Source: a cyanobacterium endosymbiont of Epithemia turgida isolate EtSB Lake Yunoko
GTDB lineage: Bacteria; Cyanobacteriota; Cyanobacteriia; Cyanobacteriales; Microcystaceae
Length of the DNA stretch: 32,000 bases
Assembly: GCF_000829235.1 (NCBI RefSeq)
Contig: NZ_AP012549.1
Coordinates: 2,010,001-2,042,000, forward strand
Reading direction: 5' to 3'
The notes below the pieces were generated by a model. It was not told the DNA's origin, ran no database searches, and saw nothing but the letters and a program-made list of their open reading frames with translations. The position numbers and the translations under genes are program-made. Positions 3,638-32,000 of this stretch are shown here, piece by piece. How positions within the stretch are numbered: position 1 is the first letter of the stretch; every line of letters begins with the position of its first letter.

Positions 3638-3679
3638 GAAGAAACAAAATTCTATAAAGAAGACTCTATAACTAATGTA

Positions 3680-4111
3680 GTTGAAGAAATCGTTAACGCG
3701 GTTAGCCACTGGTGGTGTGAAAAGAAAAGTCATGATGACAGAACCCTCCTATTCAGATACAACACGGAAATCTCAGTTAAATTATCCTTCCAAACTTCAC
3801 TTCATGTAAAAACTCCTTCCTAGCATCACCACCGTGTCTTGATGTAGGGGGCAATTGTCTTACTAGGACTAGGTACAAGTTTAATCTCTCGATAGGTTTT
3901 CTTACAGTGGAACCTAACTCCTTGGGTAGAAACTAAACTCAGTAATTTTAAAAATCGTCCAGTTCATTTAGGAGCCCTTAAGTATTTTTCATTAGGTCAA
4001 GTGCGTTTTGGCAAAAGTCAGATTGCTAAAACTGCTGCTGATTCTGCTCAAGTTACTATGGCTGCTTTGGACGTAGCCTACGATCCTCTCACATTAGAGA
4101 TTATCGGGTAA
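3680..4111 (+). pseudogene. Possible N-terminal remnant of a TamB/DUF490-like translocation-assembly protein; the rest of the gene is missing or decayed
   Basis: A single frame reads '...GAIVLLGLGTSLISR*VFLQWNLTPWVETKLSNFKNRPVHLGALKYFSLGQVRFGKSQIAKTAADSAQVTMAALDVAYDPLTLEIIG*' and contains several in-frame stops. A hydrophobic anchor followed by an 'L.P.VE..LS....RPV.LG....FSL...RFG.S.I' pattern matches my recollection of cyanobacterial TamB-like N-termini. This has not been verified by alignment. Confidence 0.35.
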
Positions 4112-4923
4112 GTCGCCGCTTACAGGGTTAAATAACTATGACAGAACAGGATTTTTGCCAATGTCTGGAAGGACTGTTGCCTCTTTACCAACAGATTACT
4201 AAGTAAATATAACAGTGATCGCCGTGAGAAATTATGCCAATGGTCATCATTGTCGAGAGTCTAATCTTTCATTGCAACCTAAGTCTATTAGATGGAGATA
4301 ACGTTATACTCTAACTCTTTTTACTATTCCTTATGGGGCATTAATTACCTAAACTATAAAAAAATTATTAGTATGTAACAACAACATTTAATATTGCCAT
4401 ATGGCTAATAGGAGTATCTGTTTACAACCTGTTGTGATAAACTTGGGACGGGACGCAAGAATGGCAGCCACTTTATATATTGACACTTTATATATTAAGT
4501 TAAATTGTCAGCCTAGGAATGTTTTTGTTAGAGAAATTAAAGAAACATTATTAACATATTTTTTTGCTCCTCCTGGAATGATTCCTTTATTTAATTTAGT
4601 TCCTCCACATCCCCAATGGTTGTATTAGCAACAGTATTATTTAGATTATCTAGAGGATTACCTCATTACAGGGAATTATCCTTGTTCTAGTTTTGTTATT
4701 TAACCATTGTTAAATAGTCAGCTTGATCGAGTATATTTTTACCGCCATAATACTCAAAAAATTTTTTTACTATTACTGGCTCTTTCAAAAGATAAGAAAA
4801 ACTTATAAATTAATAATATTTTTCTAAAATTAATAAACAGTTAAGTAATTTTTAACCAAAAACATTATCAGTATAATGACGTTTTAATTATTCAGACAGT
4901 TGGTTACTATTATAGTAATTTTT

Positions 4924-4970
4924 TTCTATTTATTTAATTAAAATATTTAATTTTAATTAAATAAATAGAA
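4924..4970. repeat. Perfect 21-bp inverted repeat with a 5-nt spacer, composed almost entirely of A/T
   Basis: ttctatttatttaattaaaat (4924-4944), attta, then attttaattaaataaatagaa (4950-4970). The arms are exact reverse complements. It lies in a 2-kb AT-rich spacer. Confidence 0.6.
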
Positions 4971-6650
4971 GATCAAAACTAATGCTATAAAACATAGTTT
5001 TTTATTTAAAAAAGTCAAAAATATATTTAACAACCCTAACTTACTAAGTTATATAAAATATCACCTTAATTCTCAAGAGAGAAGATAACTATTAATAGGG
5101 CAACTGTTACTATTTAAACAGCTTAATTCTTCTGATTTTGGTAGTTTATACAGACATAAATGGAGTACCCAGAATAATCCTTGCATAATGAACAAGCAAA
5201 AAAGAAAAAAAAGAGAGTATATTGGCGATAATTAGTTCGGTATTGATATGTTACCTAAAGAACAAGACCATAAGTTGGTCAATATATTCAGATGAGGATA
5301 CGGTTTATTCAGACATTATTGAACTTGAAAATATTTTTTTTTAAACTGTCAAGTTGATACAATATAACCTAAAAACTGTATAAATACAATGGTATACTGA
5401 TATTCTGTAATAATTTTACAACACAGGTTAAAAACGATCCTAAGATTAAACGAACTTAAAATTAAAGGCTAGGAGTTATGTATTGAGAATACAGACTAAA
5501 TATGGGGTTTCTAGAATAGATAAGACGATTATTATATACTAGGCTCACTAAAAATTTCTCAATAATGTCAATAGTGACTAAATGTATTGCTCAATAAAAC
5601 TCTATCTAACTTAGGATAATAAAAATTAATAAAATCCTGGCATAGCCTGATCTGACAATAATTTTATAATAAATAAACTATTCCATAATAAGGTCTTTAA
5701 AAGGTTAATGCTAATAATTATCTATAAAAAAATTGATATTTTTATCAATAAAAAACAATTTTAATACTCTTAAATATAATTTAATTTAAAATTAATCTAG
5801 TCATGTTTTTAATTTAAATTACTTATTAGCCATAATTTAAAATTTTTAATCAGAGCTAATAATAGCTAAAAAAGCAAGTTAATATTACCTCATATTTTAT
5901 GGCTTAATTTTATTTTAAATACCTAATTTATTTATTATGTAGTAGCATTATTTAATAATATAAATAGTGATTTTATCTTTTAAAAATTTTTTATTTATTC
6001 CGTTTATATATTGCATTATCTCACTGAAATATAAAATCGTGCAATATTATTTTTGATTTTTTTAAGGATGTTAACTTATCCCAACTCTTTTAAATAAACA
6101 ATTTTCCTATTTTTATCGATCTCTAGGATTGCAATCACCTAGCACTCTCTTTTTTTGATTAATATTTGTTATTTTTTAGCTATTACTATCATGAAATATA
6201 AGTTATAGTCATTAGATGAATCGTCAAATATCTTGTATCAGAATAAAAATTACATTTAGTCATTGATTTATTTTTTAAAGTTTTAATAGCTATATTTTAT
6301 TCTAAAAATATTTTCTGCATTTATATTTTTTTATTTTTAGCGATAGCTTTATATTTTTAGATTTGTTATACTTAAGCTCATCTCTCAATGAGTAACTTCT
6401 AAAAACTATCAAAGCTTAATTGATTATATATTGTGAATCTATATAACCCAGCAAGTCAATAGGGAAAAATCTTCTCAAAAGTCGCAGACGTAACAAAATT
6501 ACATCACATAAAGCATCACTGAAGAAAATAATTAGCCAAAATTGCTTTATATAGAGGGGAGAGCTATCTCTAAATAAAATGGATTAATAAAAAAAGATAT
6601 GAGAGATTATTGATATATTCTCTTTTTTAATCTTTATTTTAGTCTAGTTT

Positions 6651-7298
6651 ATGAACAAATCAGATCCGAATATAACTTTACGATTACTGCCCTTTTTTGC
6701 GGGAGTACTTGGCAGTATTCTCTTATTAATTAACCGTTTTACTACATTAACCTTAACGGCATCTCAGTCTCGTTCCGATGTTGTAGGAGTTATTCTCAAT
6801 GGGGTCTTGATTTTAGTTGGGTTAATCTGGCATAAAGTTCAACCACGATCACCTGATGCTGTTACTCTTGTTGGAGAACAAGGTTTCGAATTTGCCCCCT
6901 ATTTACCAGAAGAAATCAAAAAAGAACTTGCTTGGGCCTCCTATTTAGTATTAACTAATACCGTTACCAAATCTTTGGTGGTTTACTATCAGGGAGTGGT
7001 GGTGTTGAGACGAGGGATTTTAGGCATTAACTCTCAAGTAATTCCGGGCAATATTTTAGAAAAAGTTTTGGCAAGTAAAAAGCCAGTTTATCTAGTGAAT
7101 TTGCCTCTTTATCCAGGACGCGTCGAGTTTGATTATCTCCCCGAAAATACTCAGGGAGTAATATGTCAACCTTTGGGAAACCAAGGGGTTTTGATTTTGG
7201 GGGCAAATGTCCCCCGCAGTTATACTAAACAGGACGAAAATTGGATCAAAGGAATCGCTGATAAATTAGCAGATACCTTACAAACCTATTTGCAATAG
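6651..7298 (+). CDS. Conserved cyanobacterial membrane protein, probably DUF2930 / CCB2-CCB4-like (cytochrome b6f cofactor assembly family)
   Basis: 215-aa ORF with two N-terminal hydrophobic helices. The motifs 'SQSRSDVVGV', 'ELAWASYL', 'LYPGRVEFDYLPENTQGVICQPLG' and 'LGANVPRSYTKQDENWI' match the family as I recall it. The family assignment is from memory. Confidence 0.5.
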   Translation: MNKSDPNITLRLLPFFAGVLGSILLLINRFTTLTLTASQSRSDVVGVILNGVLILVGLIWHKVQPRSPDAVTLVGEQGFEFAPYLPEEIKKELAWASYLVLTNTVTKSLVVYYQGVVVLRRGILGINSQVIPGNILEKVLASKKPVYLVNLPLYPGRVEFDYLPENTQGVICQPLGNQGVLILGANVPRSYTKQDENWIKGIADKLADTLQTYLQ

Positions 7299-8723: not shown

Positions 8724-10661
8724 ATGGTTTCTAATTCTTTTATCTTCCTTAAACTTTCTCGTCGTGCTGTCTTGAAACTTTTAGGGATTGCATTACCTGC
8801 AGCAATATTAGGCTATTCTCGTTTTAGTAAACCCCAACCTTTTATCTATCAACAAGACAGCTTAAGTTTACCTTCTCGACCAACTAAACCTAAATCTGTG
8901 GTCATAATTGGTGCAGGTTTAGCGGGATTAGCTTGTGCTTACGAATTAAGTCAACGAGGGTTTCAAGTAACTTTATTAGAGAGAGCACCCAATCTAGGAG
9001 GTAAAATTGCCAGTTGGACGGTTCAAGTAGGTAGTGAAACTTTCAAAATGGAACATGGATTTCACGGTTTTTTTCCCCAGTATTATAACCTGAATAGTAT
9101 TGCTCAAGAATTATCCATTACAAATAATTTTCAATCCTTAAAGTTTTATTCTGTTGTCTTTAAAGACAATATTTATAGACCAGAAAATTTTTATCCAAGT
9201 CACTCAACTTTTCCCTGGAATATTATTGATCTTTGGTTTTGGTCTTCTAATCGTCTTCAATGGGGAATTAACTTACTAAAACCCTCTCACTGGAAAGTTT
9301 TTAAAGCTATTACAGGAGTTCAAATTCCTAAAATTTTTACCAAATTTGACAATATCTCTGTAACTGAATGGGTAAAACAAGGTTTTCCTAAAGGAATTCA
9401 TGATTTATATTTTCTTCCCTTTGCTAAGGCTACTTTAAATGCACCTGATATTTTAAGTGCAGGAGAATTATTACAATTTTTCCATTTTTATTTTTTTGGG
9501 AATCCTGAAGGTTTAGCTTTTAGTGGAACTAAAGATGATATGGGAACCAGTTTAGTTCAACCTTTTATTAAAGCAATTCAAAAGAATGGGGGACAAGTTA
9601 TTTCTGAAGGAATTATTAATAAAATTATCTGTAACAACGAAAAAATTATTTCTTTAACTTATCAACAGGGAAACTCTCAAACTGAAGTTCCTTTTTGGGT
9701 AGAACGTAATAATTATTTGACTAATAGTCATGTAACATACTATGGTGCAGGTGATCGGGTTTTCATTGCTACTTCAAATCATCAAGAAGCAATTTCTTTA
9801 ACTTGTACTCACCAAGGTTGTACAGTAAGTAGACAAACGGATGGAACCTTTTTATGTCCCTGTCATGGAACATTATATGATGACAAAGGCAAAGTATTTG
9901 GAGGTCCTGCAAAACAAAATTTACCCCGTTATAAAATAAACCAGCAGAGGGAAACATCAATCCTGTTAATTAGTGTTTCTACTTTATCTTCAAAAAAAGA
10001 TACAATGCTGGAAGCAGATTATTATGTTATGGCTACTGATGTTCCTGGAATTAAGCAGTTATGGGAGTTGATAGAAGGAGATATTAATCCAAAAGTTACT
10101 CAACAAGTAGTAACTTTAACAACAGCTGATCCGTTTGCTGTTGGACGATTTTGGTTTGACCAAGATTTTGACTGGAACTATAGTGATTTTACCTCTGTTT
10201 CGGGATATAAACTAACCGATAGTATTACTCTTTATCACCATATTCAAAATCAGTTTATTGAGTGGTCAAAACACACAGGAGGAAGTGTAATAGAATTACA
10301 TGCTTATTGTTATAAGGAAAAGGATTTTCCAAATCAAGAATCTCTCTTGAGAGCGTTTGAACAGGAATTATATGAAATTGTTCCAAAATTAAAACAGGCT
10401 AACTGCTTAAATAAGGAATTGGTTAACCAGAATAATTTTTCAGGTTATCCTCCTAACAGTTATAATAATCGTCCAAAAACTACAACAGAAATTAAAAATT
10501 TATACTTTGCTGGAGATTGGGTTAAGATGCCTTTTCCTTGTAGTTTAATGGAACGTGCAGTCAGTAGTGGACTTTTGGCGGCTAATGAAATTTTACATCA
10601 AGAAGGGTTACAAAGACGTACATTGTTAACAGTTGCACCATCAGGGTTAGTTAAAATCTAG
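8724..10661 (+). CDS. FAD-dependent amine-oxidase/phytoene-desaturase-like oxidoreductase with an N-terminal twin-arginine signal and an internal Rieske [2Fe-2S] domain
   Basis: 645-aa ORF. It has a Tat-like 'LSRRAVLKLLG' followed by a hydrophobic stretch. The Rossmann motif is 'VVIIGAGLAGLACAYEL...LLE...GGK'. The Rieske box 'CTHQGCTVSRQTDGTFLCPCHGTLYD' (nt 9804-9881) is inserted between the two halves of the oxidase fold. The C-terminal part carries 'YFAGDW'. Confidence 0.8.
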   Translation: MVSNSFIFLKLSRRAVLKLLGIALPAAILGYSRFSKPQPFIYQQDSLSLPSRPTKPKSVVIIGAGLAGLACAYELSQRGFQVTLLERAPNLGGKIASWTVQVGSETFKMEHGFHGFFPQYYNLNSIAQELSITNNFQSLKFYSVVFKDNIYRPENFYPSHSTFPWNIIDLWFWSSNRLQWGINLLKPSHWKVFKAITGVQIPKIFTKFDNISVTEWVKQGFPKGIHDLYFLPFAKATLNAPDILSAGELLQFFHFYFFGNPEGLAFSGTKDDMGTSLVQPFIKAIQKNGGQVISEGIINKIICNNEKIISLTYQQGNSQTEVPFWVERNNYLTNSHVTYYGAGDRVFIATSNHQEAISLTCTHQGCTVSRQTDGTFLCPCHGTLYDDKGKVFGGPAKQNLPRYKINQQRETSILLISVSTLSSKKDTMLEADYYVMATDVPGIKQLWELIEGDINPKVTQQVVTLTTADPFAVGRFWFDQDFDWNYSDFTSVSGYKLTDSITLYHHIQNQFIEWSKHTGGSVIELHAYCYKEKDFPNQESLLRAFEQELYEIVPKLKQANCLNKELVNQNNFSGYPPNSYNNRPKTTTEIKNLYFAGDWVKMPFPCSLMERAVSSGLLAANEILHQEGLQRRTLLTVAPSGLVKI

Positions 10662-11383
10662 AATTTGTTATTTTTTTTATTTCTATAAAGAGAATCCATA
10701 ATAATCTTTCTGGCTAATTTAATATTTAGCCTGTTTTTCCTAAAATATTAAAACTTTTCAAGGAAAATAAATCCATCTGAATAAACTCACTAATTTAATT
10801 CCAAGATTTTATTTAGCTAAAGAGAATACTCAGCATGAATAATAAAAAATAAAATATATAATCTAGACTAAACTGTCTAACAATCTAAGTTTGAGTTAAA
10901 AATAAAATTATTATTTCTATTAGTTATATCTAATAAGTTGAGTTAAACTAATAATAATTCTTCCACACTAAAGCTAATTAAAAATTATAAGACTAAGTGA
11001 AGTTTATTAACTAAAAACCAAGTATAAAAGTATAAATATGATTAAACTAAGTTAAGAATTAGTTTGAAATTTTCCTTGATTGATATCTCTATTAATTCAT
11101 GATTCTATTTGAGTGTCTTGTACTAGTATATTTTGTAGATTTTTTAGCATGAGTTGATAGTTTATCCGTTTTCTTAAAAGTTATTAACATAGTGTTGTTT
11201 ATTTTACGTCCGACTACTGAATTTATAGAGTTTGTAGAGATCCTTACCCGGGATATCACCAGACACCATCTCCTGAATACATGGGAAGAAGCTATAGTTG
11301 ATTTAAATAGTTTTTACTTAAATTTATACCGTTCAACCTAACCTTATATCTTCCATTAAAAGGCTTTCTACAGCAAAACGGCG

Positions 11384-11427: not shown

Positions 11428-11517
11428 ATAAGATTATAGTTATCTCATTCTATCCAAAATACTATACACAAATTGTTTAACCCTGTCCAATTCGCGTTTC
11501 CATAGCCATATCTGGCT

Positions 11518-12033
11518 ATGGAAGTTATGAAGACAGTTGATTTTCTCCTAATTATTCATCTAGTGACTGCTGTTATTTTTGTTTTTCCTTTAATTGGTAT
11601 TGTGTCTTATTTTTCTGGGAAAACTTATCAAAGACGTTTACAAACTTTAAATAAGAATTCGAATAAGAAAAAAAGTAAATTTTTTCTATTAGTTGGACGA
11701 GATCATGTTTTTATGGGACGTTGGTTATCAGGTTTGGTAGTTGAAGTTAGTTTGTTAGGATTAGCATATCCCATTGGGAAAAACATTATTAACAATCGAC
11801 TTTGGTAAAATAATGTATTTTTCTTTCTTTTTATTTTAACAATGTTTGTAGTAACCATTGCTGCTTTGGTAATTCTTCAAAAAACACGACAGAAACATTA
11901 GCGAGGAGTTTTTGCAACTTTAACTGGAATAGGACTAATAATTTTAGGATTTAAAGATAGGGTATTCTGTCGAGATAATCAATGGTACATGTCTCATTTC
12001 TATTTTGGTATTTTAGCTGCTTTATTGCTCTAA
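11518..12033 (+). pseudogene. Multi-pass membrane protein interrupted by two in-frame stop codons (family not assigned; DUF4079-like layout)
   Basis: The 96-aa ORF (11518-11808) continues in the same frame through TAA 11806-11808 and TAG 11899-11901 to TAA 12031-12033. The continuation stays hydrophobic and helix-like: '...NNVFFFLFILTMFVVTIAALVILQKTRQKH*RGVFATLTGIGLIILGF...HFYFGILAALLL*'. Confidence 0.5.
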
Positions 12034-12258
12034 TGGTTGGCGGCGCAGTATTCACATTATTTTAAATTGTCTCACTTTGCTATTATTTATAGCGCAAAGC
12101 ATAACAGGGATTAGAGATTTATTAGAAATTGGTAAATATAAACTCGGAGAATAATTTTGAACTAAATTAAGAAAAATTATTCAGGACAGAACGATTTTAC
12201 GAGGTAAAAATTTAACTTAAATTCAGATATAGTTTTGGATATAAGACATTAGGTTAGA

Positions 12259-15298: not shown

Positions 15299-15520
15299 TT
15301 AATAACGTTTCTGGGCAATTTGTCAGGTTTTCTTACTAAAATCAATTCCTACAATGTCAGTATCGGGGGTCAGCATAATTAAATACTCTGTTCTTACCCC
15401 TGTTCCATACCCTACATCATAAAATACAAATGTCTTGTCTAGAAGCTTTTGTTCCTGTAACAAAGTCGTAAGCTGCAGTACAATATTACCGTCAATTATA
15501 CCAAAGTGGCGGTTCATCAT
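15299..15520 (-). pseudogene. Truncated class I SAM-dependent methyltransferase
   Basis: The 65-aa ORF carries SAM motif I 'VFYDVGYGTGVRTEYL' and 'IVGIDFSKKT'. TGA then interrupts what continues as 'QIAQKRY*' (compare the usual G-I-D-x-S-x-x-M-L-x-x-A-x-x-R). No post-I motifs follow. Confidence 0.5.
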
Positions 15521-15662
15521 AATAAGAGTTTAGTAAAAAAGGGGTAGGTCTGATAAAGAAGTTAAAAAACGCAACCAACTTTCCTGAGATTACCAATAAG
15601 TCTCTTAAAGAGTAGGAAAGATGGGGTTAAAGGGAGTTGCTCTTTTACTTTTACATAGCGTT

Positions 15663-21891: not shown

Positions 21892-24172
21892 AAAAATTAA
21901 TTGAAGATAAAGGCAAGTTTTTACCTTATTTTAATCAAGCTAATTGTTTCTTTCAATTTTTTCATGGCGGTTTAATTGTCCCATAACTAGTTAATTTAAT
22001 CAGATGGTTATCTGTCTGTAGGTTGACTGAGTCGACAGTTTCATTTTGCAAAGTATAAGTAGCGACATCAACACCAATAGTGAATGTAATCTCATTTTGC
22101 CCTATCTTAGAGGTTTAGCTGTAATCACGATTCATCTGTTAACAGGTTTTAAAGCTATTTATGTATTGGTTTTAAGTACAGTAGCCATAATTTATTCTAC
22201 TCCAAATTTTACTAAACAATCAACTGTTTGTAGAAAGGTTATATCATCATTCAACCATTAGAGTAGACTTGAACATCTTTATACAGCTACGTCTTCTAAG
22301 AGCTTAGTCTCTGGTATATTTTTTTATTGTTTAATAGATGCTTAGAGTTGTGTTGGATAGATTAGTATTAAATTGAGATAAATAGATAAATTTAAATAAG
22401 GGTTTTCCTGAACAATGGTTTTTAAAGAACAATCGTTAGATACCAGATTATCTAAAAATTAGCTGACATAATTAGAAGAGTAAGAACTATCATTTACTTA
22501 TAATTTACAACTACTTTTAAATAAACTAGGAATAGTGTTTTTTTTAAAAAAAAAAGATTACCGCAATAACAATAATTATATTCTAATCAACCTCTATATT
22601 AATTACTCTAATCTAATATAAAGGTTGATTTATTTGTGTACATTTAAATCTACTTATTTAATTTTAATATAATAAAAACTAACTTATTACTCAAAACCAT
22701 TAATACAAGCAAACTAATTAATATAATTATCGACATAATAGCTAAGTGATTAATATCAATAATTTCATTTTTTCTAGACTAGCTATGGTTAATTTTTAAT
22801 AAATAAAGACTAAAACTATTATTAACTACCAATTTATAGTACTTGAGCTATAAGAGGCATAATTTCTAAATATATTTACATATAAAATAGCATAGATGCA
22901 AATGATTAACCACCATAAGAGTTTAAAATAAGGTTAACTTATTTAACGTAGAAAGACTTACTAAAAATAGATTATAGTATATATTTGTAGGTATTTATAT
23001 CAATGACTATTATTGATATTTTAATAAATTTATCCTTTTTTAAAATTATTTAATTTTAAATTTTGTAATTTTTCTTTGCCATAAGCAATAATCTGTTTTT
23101 GGTGATCTATTGAGATAGTATCAACTGTTAAAGCGGGTCAATTCTTATTGAGTAATTTGTTGGTTTTAGTTAATACAAGAAAAATATAAATAATTCCAAC
23201 AAACTTTTCCTGAAAACCATTAAAAATAAGCACTTTAATACCAGTGTTGGGAATATTAGGAACGCTATTAGAGTAAACCTCAGTTATTTTGTGATAGCGC
23301 TGATAGGTGCGTGTTTTACTATTTGAGAACTCAGTTAAATTGCTCCTCATAAGAAGCAATCCTTGATGGTTAACCTGATGATAATTTTGGATCATATTTA
23401 CCTGACTATCGGTGATGTTAACATACGAAAAGTTTAGAATAAATATATATTTAATTAGTTTATTTTTGGTTTATAGCATAGATAAATTGATATCAATTTA
23501 TTTGCTTATTTTTTGTTGAAAACCTAGAATTAAATGCCCCTAAAACTAATGTTAGATTTAGTATGGTAAAATATTTTAATATTGTTTTAATTTCGCGTTT
23601 AAACTATCATTTAAACATAATAAGCCATGTTTGTAAACTAGAAATCGGTAAAATTTAACCGTAAAATATTTCAATTGATGGAAACCAGATAAATATCAAA
23701 TACAGTCCAATACAGGCTATAAAGTATAACTAAATTAGGATAAAAACACACTAACAAAGCAAAAAAACCGTCTTTTTCGTAAAAAAGAAAAGATAATAGC
23801 ATAGGGATATTCTCACAATAGACTAAGTACAGATATTACTAATAAGTACTATGATAAGTTTTGAAAAAATACTTTAATTTTTAAGAATAGTTCAATCTGC
23901 GACTGTCTCAAGCATAAAATCTATCCACAAAAACGGTAGCTTAAAATAATTATCTAAAAATTTTACTATTAACAAGAAACCAAGACCTGAATGATACCTT
24001 CATTTAACCCTAAGTCTAGATAATTTTGTCCTAATCTCTTATAGCTAGCGCATATTTATAGTTTTTTTGTTATTTTTTAGAGGTAAATCATTGCTATCAA
24101 GAAAAAGACTGAGATCACCAATTTTTTAAACAGTCAACTTCATCCATTATTACTGGTATAAAAATTGCTAAA

Positions 24173-25337: not shown

Positions 25338-25387
25338 TTTTATGTTTAACTCCAGATAGAAATTTCTATCTGGAGTTAAACATAAAA
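25338..25387. repeat. 50-bp perfect palindrome (25-bp arms, no spacer)
   Basis: ttttatgtttaactccagatagaaa|tttctatctggagttaaacataaaa. All 25 pairs were checked and pairing breaks at 25337/25388. It lies in the decayed spacer upstream of the chlM pseudogene. Confidence 0.7.
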
Positions 25388-25783
25388 GTCTTGATAAGGC
25401 ATAGTTATGCTCTCATCAAGAGTTCTCTTTATTATGTCTGATTTAAATAAAAATAAAGTTAAATATTTTTTTTGAAAAATTGTTTTTATAGTAGCAGATT
25501 TAGTTATTTGTAGAAAGATTATTACTTTTGATAAATTTAATTAGAATTAACCTTATTGTAAATCATTGTTTAGCATCTATAACAGATTAGAGGGTGACCA
25601 CGTATCATCAACTCTTGATATCGTTGAAGAATCTGAACCGGAAAAAGAATCAGGAGAAACTCAATGAAAATTTCAAGGATTACTTCTAACTTCGTTAAAT
25701 AGTGAATAGTAAAAGCAGTTTATACCCGCACTTGCCAGTACAATAAGGGGTTCTCCTCAATAATTTTAGATTATCTCACGCCA

Positions 25784-26469
25784 ATGAACACTATCGACGA
25801 TAAAGCAATTGTTAAAAAATATTTCAATGCCATTGGGTTTGACCGTTGGCGCAGGATTTATGGAGATGGAGAGGTGAATAAAATTCAAGAGGACATTCGT
25901 CGCGTCCATCAACAAACTATTGATACTGTGGTAGACTGGCTAAAGGCTGAAGAAAATATCAGTAGTTTGTCTATTTGTGACGCGGGGTGTGGTGTGGGGA
26001 GTTTAAGCATTCCCTTAGCTCAAACAGGGGCTAGAGTCCTTGCCAGTGATATTTCCGCGAAATGATGGAAGAAGCCGCCCAAAGAGCCCCAAAATCCCTG
26101 TAAGATGCCAGTAATATTGTCTTTACAGTTCAAGACTTACAAAAATTGTAGGGTCAATATCAGACCGTCATTTGTATTAATGCTCTGATTCATTATCCTA
26201 CCGAAGATACAGCTAAAATGATTGCCCATCTTGCCTCGTTAGCAACGTCTCGTCTAATTCTTATTTTTGCTTCTAAAAACCTTTGTTTAACTATCCTTAA
26301 AAAAATCGGCGAATTCTTTCCAGAACCTGGTATAACTACCCGTGTCTCTCAGCATAAAGAAAAGGATGTCATTGCCATTCTAGAAAACAATGGTCTAAGA
26401 GTTCAACGCGAAGCTATGACCAGTACACGTTTTTATTACTCTCGAATTCTAGAGACGACCCGAAGTTAA
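25784..26469 (+). pseudogene. chlM: Mg-protoporphyrin IX methyltransferase, inactivated by one frameshift and two nonsense codons
   Basis: The N-terminal fragment (25784-26065) carries 'KKYFNAIGFDRWRRIYGDGEVN' and 'CDAGCGVGSLSIPLAQTGA'. The C-terminal fragment (26218-26469) carries 'MIAHLASLA...FASK...LKKIGEFFP...[12 protein letters not shown]'. The two are in different frames. The switch maps to the A-run at 26060-26062, and the second frame contains TAA 26101-26103 and TAG 26149-26151. Confidence 0.9.
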
Positions 26470-26510
26470 TTACTCGATCTTACTTAACTTTTAGCTCATA
26501 TTTGTTGATT

Positions 26511-27284
26511 ATGTCCATTACCCTTCAATGCCTTATTGAGGCCAAACGGCAAGGACGTCTCTTAACTGTCCTCACTGCTTGGGATTATGCCATTGCTCAA
26601 CTCTTGGACATAGCAGGGGTTGATATTATTCTAGTGGGGGACTCCCTGGCAATGGTGGCCTTGGGACATAAAACTACATTACCCTTGACCCTTGAGGAGA
26701 TATTACACCATGGAGGGGCAGTGAGGCGTGGAGTCAAACGGGCTTTCTTAGTGTGTGATTTGCCCTTTTTGAGTTATCAAGAAAGTATTAGCCAAGCTAT
26801 CCACACGGCGGGGCGAGTATTGAAAGAAACAGAGGTTCAAGCGGTGAAACTCGAAGGAGGATACCCAGCTGTGGTAGAAACGGTTGCTCAATTGACGGCT
26901 ATTGGTATTCCAGTGATGGGTCATGTGGGGTTAACTCCCCAGTCGGTACATCGCTTAGGATATCGTCAACAGGGACAAACTGAAACTGACGCGAAACGAA
27001 TTATCTCAGAAGCAATCGCCCTATCAGAGGCGGGGGCATTTGCAGTTGTTCTTGAGCATATTCCGTCTAATTTAGCAAAGATTATTACTAATAAGCTTCC
27101 TATCCCAACCATCGGTATTGGCGCAGGATCTGACTGTGATGGTCAGGTATTGGTTACTGCTGATTTACTGGGATTATCAGGAAAAAAACCCCCTTTTGCT
27201 AAATCATATACCAATTTACGGCAGATTATTACTGAAGCGGTAAAAGAGTTTTCTAGAGAAGTACGCGAGGGGAAATTTCCCTAA
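26511..27284 (+). CDS. panB: 3-methyl-2-oxobutanoate hydroxymethyltransferase (ketopantoate hydroxymethyltransferase)
   Basis: 'LTVLTAWDY', '[14 protein letters not shown]', 'AVKLEGG', '[10 protein letters not shown]' and 'LEHIPS'. I prefer the ATG at 26511 over the TTG at 26502 given by the ORF track. Confidence 0.93.
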
Positions 27285-28096
27285 TTTAATAATAATTTCT
27301 TAATCGCAATAGCAACTCCATTTTGTTCTACAGTGGGAGCTACCCATTTAGCCATCTTCTGGACTTCTATAGGTGCATTCCCCATAGCCACCCCTAACCC
27401 TACATACTCTAACATTTCAGCATCATTGAAATTATCCCCAATAGCCATTATTTGGCTGGCTTCCAATCCCAATAGTTCCTCCGCTACAAAACGAGTGGCA
27501 TTACCCTTAGTTGCTTGAGGATGGGTAGCTTCAAAATAAATTTCAGTAGACTGGGTTAAATAAAGTTGATTACGAGGGTAAACTTTTTGTAAATCTGTCA
27601 AAAGTGTATTTACTAAGTGAGGTTGACCAATAACTAAAATCTTCGTGGTTGGTAAATCAAGAATATCTCGTAAATCTTCTACTACCAAAGCTTCTATCCC
27701 TGATCGTTGTTGATAAGCTCGAGTACGAGAAGTAACATTACGCACGTACAAACGGTCATCAATATAGCAGTGAAGCTCAATTTCTTGATTCCATTGAGGT
27801 CGCTCAAAATATTCCAACAGTTGTAGAGCGACGGACGTAGATACAGGAAAATGTCTATAACGAGTTCCTGTTATAGGACACTGAACCCATGCCCCATTGT
27901 AGGCGATAATAGGTAATTGGGAACCGATAGCCTGATGAAAACGCAACGCAGAATGATACATCCGACCTGTAGCTAAAGCAACTTGAACCCCGTTAGCTTG
28001 AACTTTAGAGATCGCTTCCTTAACTGGTTCAGTAACCTCATTTGATTCACCTGCAATTGTTCCATCAATATCTAGCATCAATAAGCGAATGTTCAC
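27281..28096 (-). CDS. Cof-type HAD-IIB family hydrolase (sugar-phosphatase-like)
   Basis: 271-aa ORF with HAD motif I 'LMLDIDGT', motif II 'ALATGR' and motif IV '[10 protein letters not shown]'. It converges on panB and overlaps it by 4 nt. Confidence 0.85.
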
Positions 28097-28247
28097 AGAT
28101 TATCCCCAGTTAATTCTTGTTTTCTGAAAGAAGATTTTGCTTGGAGAATCGACATGACCATTGAGGGGCAATCTATGCATTGTTCTATAGAATAATAACA
28201 ATTGAACTCAATCAAGATCAATATTCTATTAACCTTGACTGTAGCTG

Positions 28248-28358
28248 TCAGTCCATTTTGAAGGCAAACCAAACCGCCCACAAGACAATAGACAGAAATA
28301 CCAATGTCCCGACAGTAATAGCGAAAGTGTGAAAAGCATCAGAGTCAATAAGGGTCAT
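28248..28358 (-). CDS. Candidate 36-aa single-pass membrane peptide (unassigned)
   Basis: Hand translation of the minus strand gives 'MTLIDSDAFHTFAITVGTLVFLSIVLWAVWFAFKMD*'. It has one clean hydrophobic helix and a local GC content like the intact genes. It is below the ORF-track length cut-off, has no clear SD and no family recognised. Confidence 0.3.
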   Translation of the reverse strand: MTLIDSDAFHTFAITVGTLVFLSIVLWAVWFAFKMD

Positions 28359-30054
28359 CTTGAAAAGCTTAGGGGTGTTTTGGTTTAGACAATCCAAAAG
28401 GGCATCTCAAGCTATTGTGTAGATACCTTGTATTCCTTTATTATATCCGTTGTTTCAACTATATTTCCCAAGTTACTTATTTTCTCTAGTTTTGATCGAT
28501 TGTTCGAGTTATTCTTAACCCAACTTGTAGGGTTAGTACAATAAAATGCTTCATGGAGAAGGTTTTAAAAGAGATAGTCTGATTACACCTAAATGGCTGT
28601 ATTTTATACACTCCATGTAATAAAATACAAATGAGTGAGTTGTTTGGGCTTTCCAAAATATCTGAGTCTTTCCTAATTCGGACATAGTCTGTAATTGAAT
28701 ATTTCCGAATGCCTCAAACTGCCTAGTCTTCAACCTTTTTACGAGCATAACCATCTTGCCAGTCACTGCTAATGATTTTCACCACAAATGTAGTCCAAAC
28801 TGTCTAAAGTTAAAATAGACTGGTTATTATAGTCAAACCGAAGTGCTTCTTGACTAAGTGCATCTTGATCAACAACGGCAACATCAGTCTGACATGAGTC
28901 ACAATTAAATTTGCAGAACTCAAATCAGTTTCATAAGTGTAGTAAGACTACTTTAGCATGTTTAACAAACTCTTCAGCTACAACGTCACTACCTGTCTTT
29001 ATTTCTTTCCAGAAACATATTTTAAAAGTTTAATTAACTTCATTTTTAAAGAAAAATATATTGTGATAGCTAAATTTTTTAGATAGGCTGGTATCTAATT
29101 ATCTCTTTTTTAAAACTATTTTTATATCTTACATTGACTTTAAGTTTACCTACTTAAATTCTCTTGCTTCAGTTTTGTAGATCACAATAATTTATTGCAA
29201 GTTTCTTTATATTATTCCCATTCAACTTATAATATTTTATTGATAGTTCTAATTGAATATCAATTTTTTTGAATATATAAATACTAGCTTACTAGAATTA
29301 TGGTAATTTACACTAATAGTTTAAATATTTAAACTATTGCAGTTTTTTATCAATTTAATCCTGGTTGTAAAAGAAAAATTACGTAACAATATAGTAAAAA
29401 AGTGAATAAAAATGGCATACGAAATAATTCTTTGTTTTGCGAGAAATATTTTAGACTCTCTAAGTAATATATGCTTTTCATATTATTGTTGTAGACCAAA
29501 CAAATCTTTGTGTAATGTTCTAATTTTTTCAAATTCTAATGTAGGGGTTTTAAAATATCCCGTTATGCTCCTCATGATATCAGTATTTATAAGCGTTGAT
29601 AATGCACTTGTATCACCATAATAAATTTAAATTCAATAGCACGCAGCAATTTCACTCTATATTTCCCATTTCTGTCTGTTATAGATAGTAAATATTCAGT
29701 TAACCTAAAATCTTGAACGTACGTGGTTTCTCGTCCAGTAAATTTCATAACTGTTATTTTTGCTGCCGGTAGAATGACCAAATTCCCCTTATTGTCAATA
29801 TTGCAGATCTACATATTTTTATTTAGTTGACTTTAAATTTTGAGTAAGTATTAAATGACAATCTCCTCATCCTATTCAGTCTATGTCCACTATCAGTAGA
29901 AGTTGTTATAAAATTCCCGAAGCTATTTTACAGACAGCGATATACTAGGCAATGGTGTTATAGAAAATCTTGACAAGATAGCCAGCAGACAAAGATCATC
30001 AGATACGTCAAGTATCAATCAACAGACTTAAACCTATAACTTGTATCAATCAAG

Positions 30055-31173
30055 ATGAACACAGGAATCGACCTACAAGGCAGTTTTATTCAATCTCTCA
30101 AACAAATGGGAATTTCTGATGGGCTAGCAAAAGCCTTCTGGATTCCCTTGCCCTCATTTTTAATGATTATTGGAGCTACCGTCGGCGTATTAGTGGTGGT
30201 ATGGTTAGAACGAAAAATTTCTGCCGCTGCTCAACAACGTATTGGACCTGAATATGCAGGTCCTTTAGGGGTTCTTCAACCTGTGGCTGATGGCATTAAA
30301 TTGGTATTTAAAGAAGACGTCATCCCCGCTAAAGCAGACCCCTTGTTATTTACCCTAGGTCCAGTGTTAGTGGTACTTCCAGTGTTTGTTTCTTACCTAA
30401 TTGTTCCCTTTGGGCAAAATTTGGTGATTACAGACCTAAATGTGGGTATTTTATTCTGGATTGCCTTATCCAGTATTGCCCCCATTGGCTTACTAATGTC
30501 AGGATATGCTTCTAATAACAAATATTCCCTTCTTGGAGGGTTAAGGGCAGCAGCACAGTCCATTAGTTATGAAATTCCCTTGGCTTTATCCGTTTTAGCA
30601 ATTGTCATGATGTCTAATAGTCTCAGCACTATTGACATTGTGCATCAACAGTCAGGATATGGCATTTTAGGCTGGAATATTTGGCGGCAACCTGTAGGAT
30701 GTATTGTCTTTTGGATTGCGGCGTTGGCTGAATGTGAACGACTTCCTTTTGACCTTCCTGAAGCAGAAGAAGAAATCGTAGCAGGGTATCAGACTGAATA
30801 TTCAGGGATGAAGTTTGGTTTATTCTATTTAGGCTCATACGTCAACTTAGTTTTGTCGGCCTTGGTTTTTGCTATTCTTTACTTAGGGGGGTGGGAATTT
30901 CCAGTCCCTCTTGAAAAACTGGCAGGTTGGATTGGGGTAAACGAGACAAATTCCTGGTTACAGGTAATTACCGCTTCCTTGGGAATCATGATGACCGTAC
31001 TTAAAGCCTATCTCTTGATTTTCCTCGCTGTTTTAATCCGGTGGACAGTTCCCAGGGTTCGTATTGACCAATTATTGGATTTAGGTTGGAAATTCTTACT
31101 TCCTGTTTCTTTGGTTAACCTTTTATTGACGGCAGCCCTAAAACTTACCTTTCCTGTCGCTTTTGGCGGCTAA
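30055..31173 (+). CDS. ndhA: NAD(P)H-quinone oxidoreductase subunit 1 (NDH-1 subunit A, NuoH homologue)
   Basis: 372-aa polytopic ORF with '[30 protein letters not shown]', '[27 protein letters not shown]' and '[15 protein letters not shown]', the canonical NdhA/NuoH signatures. Confidence 0.95.
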
Positions 31174-31209
31174 TCTCTTTTTTTGTTTATAACTCACCAA
31201 TCAAGTGTC

Positions 31210-31791
31210 ATGTTTAACCTACTCAAACAAGTCAGCGATTACGCTAAAGGGAGTGTTGAGGCAGCTAGATATATTGGTCAAGGGCTATCTGTTACCTTTG
31301 ACCATATGCGTCGCCGTCCAATTACGGTACAATACCCCTATGAAAAACTTATTCCCTCAGAACGATTCCGGGGAAGAATTCACTTTGAATTTGATAAGTG
31401 TATTTCCTGTGAAGTCTGTGTTCGGGTATGTCCAATTAACCTTCCGGTAGTAGATTGGGAATTTAACAAAACTGTTAAGAAGAAAGAACTCAAACACTAC
31501 AGTATAGATTTTGGAGTTTGCATTTTTTGCGGTAATTGTGTTGAGTATTGTCCCACCAATTGTTTATCCATGACGGAAGAATATGAACTAGCGGCCTACG
31601 ACCGTCACGAACTCAATTATGATAATGTTGCTCTCGGACGGTTGCCTTATAAAGTAACCCAAGATCCAATAGTAACTCCCTTACGAGAGTTAGGATACTT
31701 ACCTAAAGGGGTGTTTGAACCTCATGATTTACCCTTAGGAAGTCAACGGGCAGGAAAGCGTCCTGAAGAAATTGTAAAAGAGAGCGAGTAA
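31210..31791 (+). CDS. ndhI: NAD(P)H-quinone oxidoreductase subunit I (NDH-1, 2x[4Fe-4S])
   Basis: '[14 protein letters not shown]...[24 protein letters not shown]' and two ferredoxin boxes, '[12 protein letters not shown]' and '[12 protein letters not shown]'. The start is set at ATG 31210. The 9-codon upstream extension from 31183 in the ORF track does not match the conserved N-terminus. Confidence 0.95.
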
Positions 31792-31793
31792 AA

Positions 31794-31840
31794 TATTTGA
31801 TAGTTAATAGTGTTCTTTTTGTACTATTAACTATCAAATA
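31794..31840 (+). promoter_or_regulatory. Intercistronic hairpin (18-bp perfect stem, 11-nt loop) between ndhI and ndhG
   Basis: tatttgatagttaatagt (31794-31811), gttctttttgt, actattaactatcaaata (31823-31840). It begins 3 nt after the ndhI stop and ends 14 nt before the AAGGAG SD of ndhG (31855-31860). Confidence 0.55.
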
Positions 31841-31871
31841 AACTAAACTAAGTTAAGGAGAATTAACAGTA

Positions 31872-32000
31872 GTGAATTTAGCGGAAGGCATCCAAATTGT
31901 TTCCTTTGCTATTTTAGCAACAATGGTTATTGGGACATCTATAGGGGTTGTTTTACTGTCAAATATTGTTTACTCTGCTTTTTTGTTGGGGGGAGTTTTT
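31872..32000 (+). CDS. ndhG: NAD(P)H-quinone oxidoreductase subunit 6 (NDH-1 subunit G, NuoJ homologue), 5' partial; runs off the window
   Basis: A GTG start 11 nt after AAGGAG translates to 'VNLAEGIQIVSFAILATMVIGTSIGVVLLSNIVYSAFLLGGVF'. This matches the conserved NdhG N-terminus and the ndhA-I-G gene order. Confidence 0.85.
   Translation, partial: MNLAEGIQIVSFAILATMVIGTSIGVVLLSNIVYSAFLLGGVF

Follow-up and report, generated by a model that had tools for sequence, protein, structure and literature searches.

The window, a stretch of 32,000 nucleotides from the genome of EtSB, has a G+C content of 33.1%, compared with a published value of 33.4% for EtSB. Six of the intact proteins encoded by the window are identical to EtSB entries in the range BAP18130–BAP18150, and the chromosome is AP012549. 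EtSB is the spheroid body (diazoplast) of Epithemia turgida, an obligate, non-photosynthetic, N2-fixing endosymbiont. Reading frames and codon alignment place a full-length chlM locus at positions 25784–26469 of the forward strand, collinear with its orthologues and interrupted by three lesions. The N-terminal part (25784–26061, +) comprises codons 1–92 and the first two bases of codon 93, and retains both the ATG at 25784 and an intact SAM-binding motif, ICDAGCGVG. From this ATG the frame ends '...gcg aaa tga', with the premature TGA (26063–26065, +) being met in the shifted frame right after the first lesion; the resulting ORF of 93 amino acids matches positions 2–87 of the TIGR02021 profile with 97.9 bits. 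The C-terminal part (26062–26469, +) comprises codons 94–228 and the original TAA stop, in a frame displaced by +1 base relative to the start frame. This second frame reads MMEEAAQRAPKSL, stop, DASNIVFTVQDLQKL, stop, GQYQTVICINALIHYP...RILETTRS, stop, with GQYQ... following the second stop and the end lying at 26469. Its tail is open as an ORF of 83 amino acids (26218–26469) that corresponds to TIGR02021 positions 139–217.

After restoration of one base and masking of the two internal stops, the locus yields a product of 228 amino acids that scored 228.4 bits (E = 6e-68) over positions 2–217 of the 218 in the profile TIGR02021 BchM-ChlM, an NCBIfam equivalog with a curated cut-off of 158.9 bits. 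Taken singly, the two fragments fall below this cut-off, at 97.9 and 60.8 bits. PF07109 (Mg-por_mtran_C) was assigned to the C-terminal fragment in a contig of the public assembly SRR29904087. The alignment to Synechocystis ChlM that the earlier note had suggested as a check was run against PDB 4qdj and was gapless, query residues 3–228 pairing with chain residues 5–230 (E = 4e-88). Judged by these matches, which are far beyond chance, the repaired product would clearly be ChlM, the Mg-protoporphyrin IX methyltransferase, and the two ORFs are its N- and C-terminal halves, as the earlier note had held.

The family is characterised by one uninterrupted frame, and the copy in the window is broken by a 1-bp deletion, a TAA and a TAG. 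With a frameshift and two stops, it represents a relic of the family and no functional member. The 93 translated residues extend through SAM motif I and the helices at the N-terminus only; they include neither the remainder of the Rossmann fold nor the C-terminal Mg-protoporphyrin domain. A functional methyltransferase product is predicted to be impossible, since translation from the native ATG stops after 93 residues.

An intact panB (26511–27284, +) lies downstream and encodes a protein identical to BAP18147.1 of EtSB. Its start is annotated at the ATG of 26511; an exact protein look-up of PanB read from the TTG at 26502 returned no match. chlM is also found directly upstream of panB in the endosymbionts of E. 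clementina (EcSB) and R. gibberula (RgSB), in the cyanobacterial genome SU2 and in Crocosphaera, so that the pair is kept in free-living relatives too, and this conserved neighbour places the pseudogene at the orthologous chlM locus. Gene order is shared more widely with EcSB and RgSB, running guaA, metallophosphoesterase, trmB, solute-binding protein, DUF1400, chlM, panB, Cof-type HAD hydrolase and ndhA/I/G. In a genome collection that did not contain EtSB, the closest chlM loci were those of diatom spheroid bodies (80–86% protein identity), with Cyanothece and Crocosphaera next (72–74%). A protein search with ChlM, for which the 120 best matches were listed (67–86% identity), included none labelled E. 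turgida among these matches. That EtSB has neither a second chlM nor psa and psb genes is taken from published analyses and from this search.

Elsewhere in the window, ORFs of at least 80 amino acids cover approximately 49% of the sequence. Positions 11506–12151 (+) have the appearance of a second pseudogene, in which a membrane-protein domain, DUF4079 (PF13301, E = 6e-23), is broken into four stop-free pieces that lie in different frames; an ORF survives in the first piece alone, of 96 amino acids. This domain was the sole match in a six-frame Pfam scan of the gene-free tracts of the window; the same scan revealed no recognisable domain in the AT-rich tracts at 3638–6650, 21892–24172 and 28097–30054. 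Two pieces, at 28536–28779 and 29420–29805 (-), are still similar to short fragments of ORFs in the endosymbiont of R. gibberula. The AT-rich tracts are probably heavily eroded pseudogenes common to spheroid bodies. The gene-free interval that separates hisB from guaA contains a stop-free stretch on the reverse strand (15326–15529), which reads ...VFYDVGYGTGVRTEYLIMLTPDTDIVGIDFS... and resembles motif I of a SAM-dependent methyltransferase; the stretch gave no Pfam match at E ≤ 0.01 and may be another gene remnant. Neither a tRNA scan nor an Rfam scan at the gathering threshold identified any tRNA gene or Rfam family in the 32 kb window. Genes retained at 6651–7298, 8724–10661 and 30055–32000 comprise one of the CCB2/CCB4 family of cytochrome b6f cofactor-assembly proteins, a Rieske/FAD gene whose annotation is carotenoid ring synthase-like, and ndhA, ndhI and the beginning of ndhG. 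In cytochrome b6f, each monomer normally has a single bound chlorophyll a.

Lesions and substitution pattern

The lesions were traced by codon-by-codon alignment with six orthologues: those of EcSB, RgSB and the endosymbiont of R. gibba, of the cobiont genome uoEpiScrs1, and of the cyanobacterial genomes SU2 and Cyanothece UBA12306. The spheroid body of Epithemia adnata (EaSB) provided a second relic for comparison. The frameshift results from a 1-bp deletion in an AAAA run at 26060–26062 (+; alignment column 277), where the orthologues read CCG AAA ATG (A4) and the window reads GCG AAA TG (A3). At the same site EaSB has a 5-bp deletion that overlaps the 1-bp deletion of EtSB. The latter is either ancestral or specific to EtSB, since a nested and an independent scenario each entail two events. 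The second lesion, a TAA at codon 107 (26101–26103, +), derives by one substitution from a codon that is GAA or AAA in the relatives; it is specific to EtSB, GAA being retained in EaSB. The third, a TAG at codon 123 (26149–26151, +), also arose by one substitution, from the TCG found in EcSB, RgSB and the R. gibba spheroid body, and is common to EtSB and EaSB. Every coordinate that the earlier note had given for the end of the first frame, the TAA and the TAG was confirmed on reading the window. Its proposal that one A restored at 26060–26062 would join the fragments agrees with the A4 of the orthologues and the 228-residue product, and its count of three independent lesions corresponds in the codon alignment to one deletion and two separate substitutions.

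Point changes accompany these lesions. EtSB and EaSB have in common 29 derived base changes that are missing from the three nearest outgroups and comprise, by codon, 19 missense, 1 nonsense and 4 silent changes. Among the missense changes is D133N (GAT to AAT; 26179–26181, +) in the CxDVLIHYP block, again common to EtSB and EaSB. Residues that are invariant in the six relatives were affected by 14 of the 19 shared missense changes, namely D12K, G41V, V112I, E120Q, D133N, V134A, A143T, S161I, P164S, G181E, S183G, K184I, A188V and Y189S. Since the split of EtSB and EaSB, 2 unambiguous point changes have occurred in EtSB and 5 in EaSB; the substitution counts are small and were obtained by simple parsimony rather than a likelihood model. 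On the same shared branch, panB acquired 5 missense and 6 silent changes, compared with 20 non-silent and 4 silent changes in chlM (Fisher p = 0.04). Between EtSB and EaSB, dN/dS was 0.72 for chlM and 0.22 for panB, again from small counts. These values suggest that chlM evolved in an about neutral manner on the shared EtSB/EaSB branch and since the split, small as the counts are.

Alternatives to a decayed gene

The breaks might be errors of sequencing or assembly, such as a homopolymer miscall, in a gene that is otherwise intact, and the first lesion does lie in a homopolymer A-run, a classic site of 454-type errors. The other two of the three lesions are substitutions and not homopolymer indels. 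The Logan contig SRR29904087_10518 (53.8 kb), retrieved through an exact PanB protein match, was 100% identical to window positions 25358–31284, with 0 mismatches in 5927 bases, all three lesions included, and gene calling on this contig returned chlM fragments of 93 and 83 amino acids, as in the window. SRR29904087 is a separate short-read public assembly whose independence from the 2014 data is deduced from the accession series. In the E. adnata spheroid body, the TAG and the radical replacements occur as well; the relic was found there at the same locus both in the CP076462 chromosome and in a Logan assembly, both of which derive from read set SRR25945676. The identity of the SRR29904087 assembly and the TAG common to the sister species establish that the disruptions are real, as the earlier note had argued; sequencing error is excluded on these grounds and retains next to no probability.

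Two further explanations accept the lesions and would have the locus remain useful. In one, a full-length enzyme would be produced by recoding, through a programmed +1/-1 frameshift at the A-run and, at the TAA and the TAG, read-through or reassignment. The site of the frameshift, a run rich in A, does look slippery, but the three lesions are missing from the orthologues, so that there is no conserved recoding signal, and the sister genome EaSB has a different indel at this very run. Furthermore, among 16 conserved intact genes in the window, 9 end in TAA, 5 in TAG and 2 in TGA, and the protein that recoding would restore carries the 14 replacements at invariant residues and shows an about neutral dN/dS. 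Recoding and stop reassignment were consequently rejected as vanishingly improbable, given that all three stops end neighbouring intact genes, that the lesions are not conserved and that two further stops follow the frameshift. The other explanation, that the N-terminal ORF of 93 residues (25784–26065) or the C-terminal ORF of 83 residues (26218–26469) is kept as a small protein in a new role, accords with the calling of both ORFs as genes by automatic predictors and with the intact start codon and SAM motif of the N-terminal piece in EtSB. Against it, the N-terminal piece of EaSB is of a different length (108 amino acids) and carries D66N in the SAM motif, the replacements of the shared branch occur throughout both pieces and give no hint of constraint, and a third of a Rossmann fold would not be expected to fold alone. 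Retention of a fragment is therefore regarded as highly improbable. The locus is almost certainly a real, decayed chlM, and probably a unitary pseudogene, formed by reductive evolution in a non-photosynthetic, N2-fixing diatom endosymbiont.

Age and course of the decay

The earlier note had described chlM as freshly broken and its inactivation as fairly recent. This description holds relative to the age of the symbiosis, which has been quoted as at least 34 My in one preprint, and only in that relative sense. The TAG and the 29 derived base changes common to EtSB and EaSB indicate that the inactivation is older than the split of E. turgida and E. adnata, so that chlM is read from its sequence as having been already dead and drifting before these species diverged. 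The TAG and most of the missense decay preceded the split and the TAA followed it.

A stepwise course of events explains the locus best. The endosymbiont lineage lost both photosystems and came to depend on host carbon, a step taken from the literature, after which selection on chlorophyll synthesis relaxed. chlM turned neutral in the ancestor from which the endosymbionts of E. turgida and E. adnata both descend, and gained there the TCG to TAG change together with many radical replacements, and EtSB later gained the GAA to TAA nonsense change; the relaxation and these two steps are shown by the present alignments. The 1-bp deletion in the A-run could belong either to the ancestral or to the EtSB-specific phase. 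The DNA of chlM would persist because deletion is slow in gene-poor, pseudogene-rich genomes.

The earlier note had concluded that chlorophyll synthesis was lost, and this agrees with the published finding that all Chl-a genes of EtSB are pseudogenised or undetected (PMC5638926). It had further reasoned from the loss of chlM to an organism that cannot be photosynthetic and to an obligately heterotrophic or endosymbiotic lifestyle. The non-photosynthetic endosymbiont is established, and one broken gene sufficed for its correct inference, but the causal direction is reversed: EcSB and RgSB are equally non-photosynthetic and keep an intact chlM, which argues that decay of chlM follows the loss of photosynthesis and is not its cause.

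Comparison with known spheroid bodies and Synechocystis

The EtSB chlM pseudogene is already known, having been described in EtSB genome papers since 2014–2017, and is said to have been catalogued by Nakayama et al. in 2014. Table S3 of Nakayama & Inagaki 2017 (Sci Rep 7:13075, PMC5638926) lists EtSB chlM as a pseudogene with an in-frame stop (S) and a frameshift (F), and RgSB chlM as intact (RGRSB_1609). The catalogued pseudogene and the one described here are a single locus of one genome and differ in nothing of substance. The same study found every Chl-a gene of EtSB to be dysfunctional, and PMC12903740, in agreement, states the loss of Chl-a genes for both EtSB and EaSB. The genome literature also reports that EtSB has lost most genes of photosystems I and II and that its rbcL and rbcS are pseudogenes. 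The base-level account of the three lesions, with their relative order obtained by way of EaSB, represents a modest addition to these reports.

The relic in the spheroid body of E. adnata 19Bon2 (EaSB, CP076462; Abresch et al. 2024) lies at 4278–4960 of the extracted locus. It is orthologous to and syntenic with the EtSB copy, with which it has the codon-123 TAG in common as well as each of the 19 missense changes of the stem. It differs in retaining GAA at codon 107 and in having 5 bp rather than 1 bp deleted from the A-run, and has its own changes in D66N, which falls within the DAGCGxG SAM motif, A55T, I159L and Y218D.

The chlM genes of EcSB, RgSB (RGRSB_1609) and uoEpiScrs1 are orthologous to that of EtSB (80–86% protein identity) and likewise linked to panB. 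Each has an open frame and an intact ORF, at 10001–10687 of the respective extracted locus, and both photosystems are reported missing from these lineages (PMC12903740). Between EcSB and RgSB, dN/dS was 0.18 for chlM as against 0.016 for panB; the value for chlM between SU2 and UBA12306 was 0.054. The EcSB–RgSB value accords with a published elevation of dN in the Chl-a genes of RgSB (PMC5638926). On these figures, chlM in EcSB and RgSB is apparently relaxed and not neutral, with some constraint left after photosynthesis was lost. A tentative reading of these live genes, though one less probable than not, is that a Mg-tetrapyrrole past the ChlM step keeps a non-photosynthetic role in diazoplasts, a role that the E. 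turgida/E. adnata lineage and, independently, R. gibba would later have abandoned. The retained Mg-tetrapyrrole could be a regulator of chlorophyllide type that acts on tetrapyrrole flux, or else the one pigment of cytochrome b6f. A residual regulatory role of chlorophyllide, or a chlorophyllide-type intermediate, has been proposed (PMC12903740). The dN/dS of chlM in EcSB and RgSB is compatible with that proposal, which concerns the relatives and had already been made. Were a retained role of this kind correct, the informative contrast would lie in the live orthologues and not in the dead gene, and the losses in E. turgida/E. adnata and in R. gibba would represent a second, later step.

In the spheroid body of R. 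gibba 17Bon1 (CP067995), also a non-photosynthetic endosymbiont, chlM is inactivated as well. The gene, at 10001–10687 of the extracted locus, has one lesion of its own, in which TGG at codon 22 has become TGA, and shares no lesion with EtSB or EaSB. Several odd replacements were also observed in this copy, for example C130W. As its lesion is distinct from those of EtSB and EaSB, chlM has been lost independently at least twice. The gene thus offers a small worked example of the parallel, stepwise erosion of a pathway in a young, nitrogen-fixing, organelle-like symbiont.

The functional counterpart is ChlM of Synechocystis sp. PCC 6803 (slr0525; PDB 4qdj/4qdk), with which the repaired EtSB product aligns without a gap. 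The EtSB copy differs from it in the frameshift, in the two stops and in replacements at residues conserved in both Synechocystis and the six relatives, among them D133N, G41V, P164S and Y189S.
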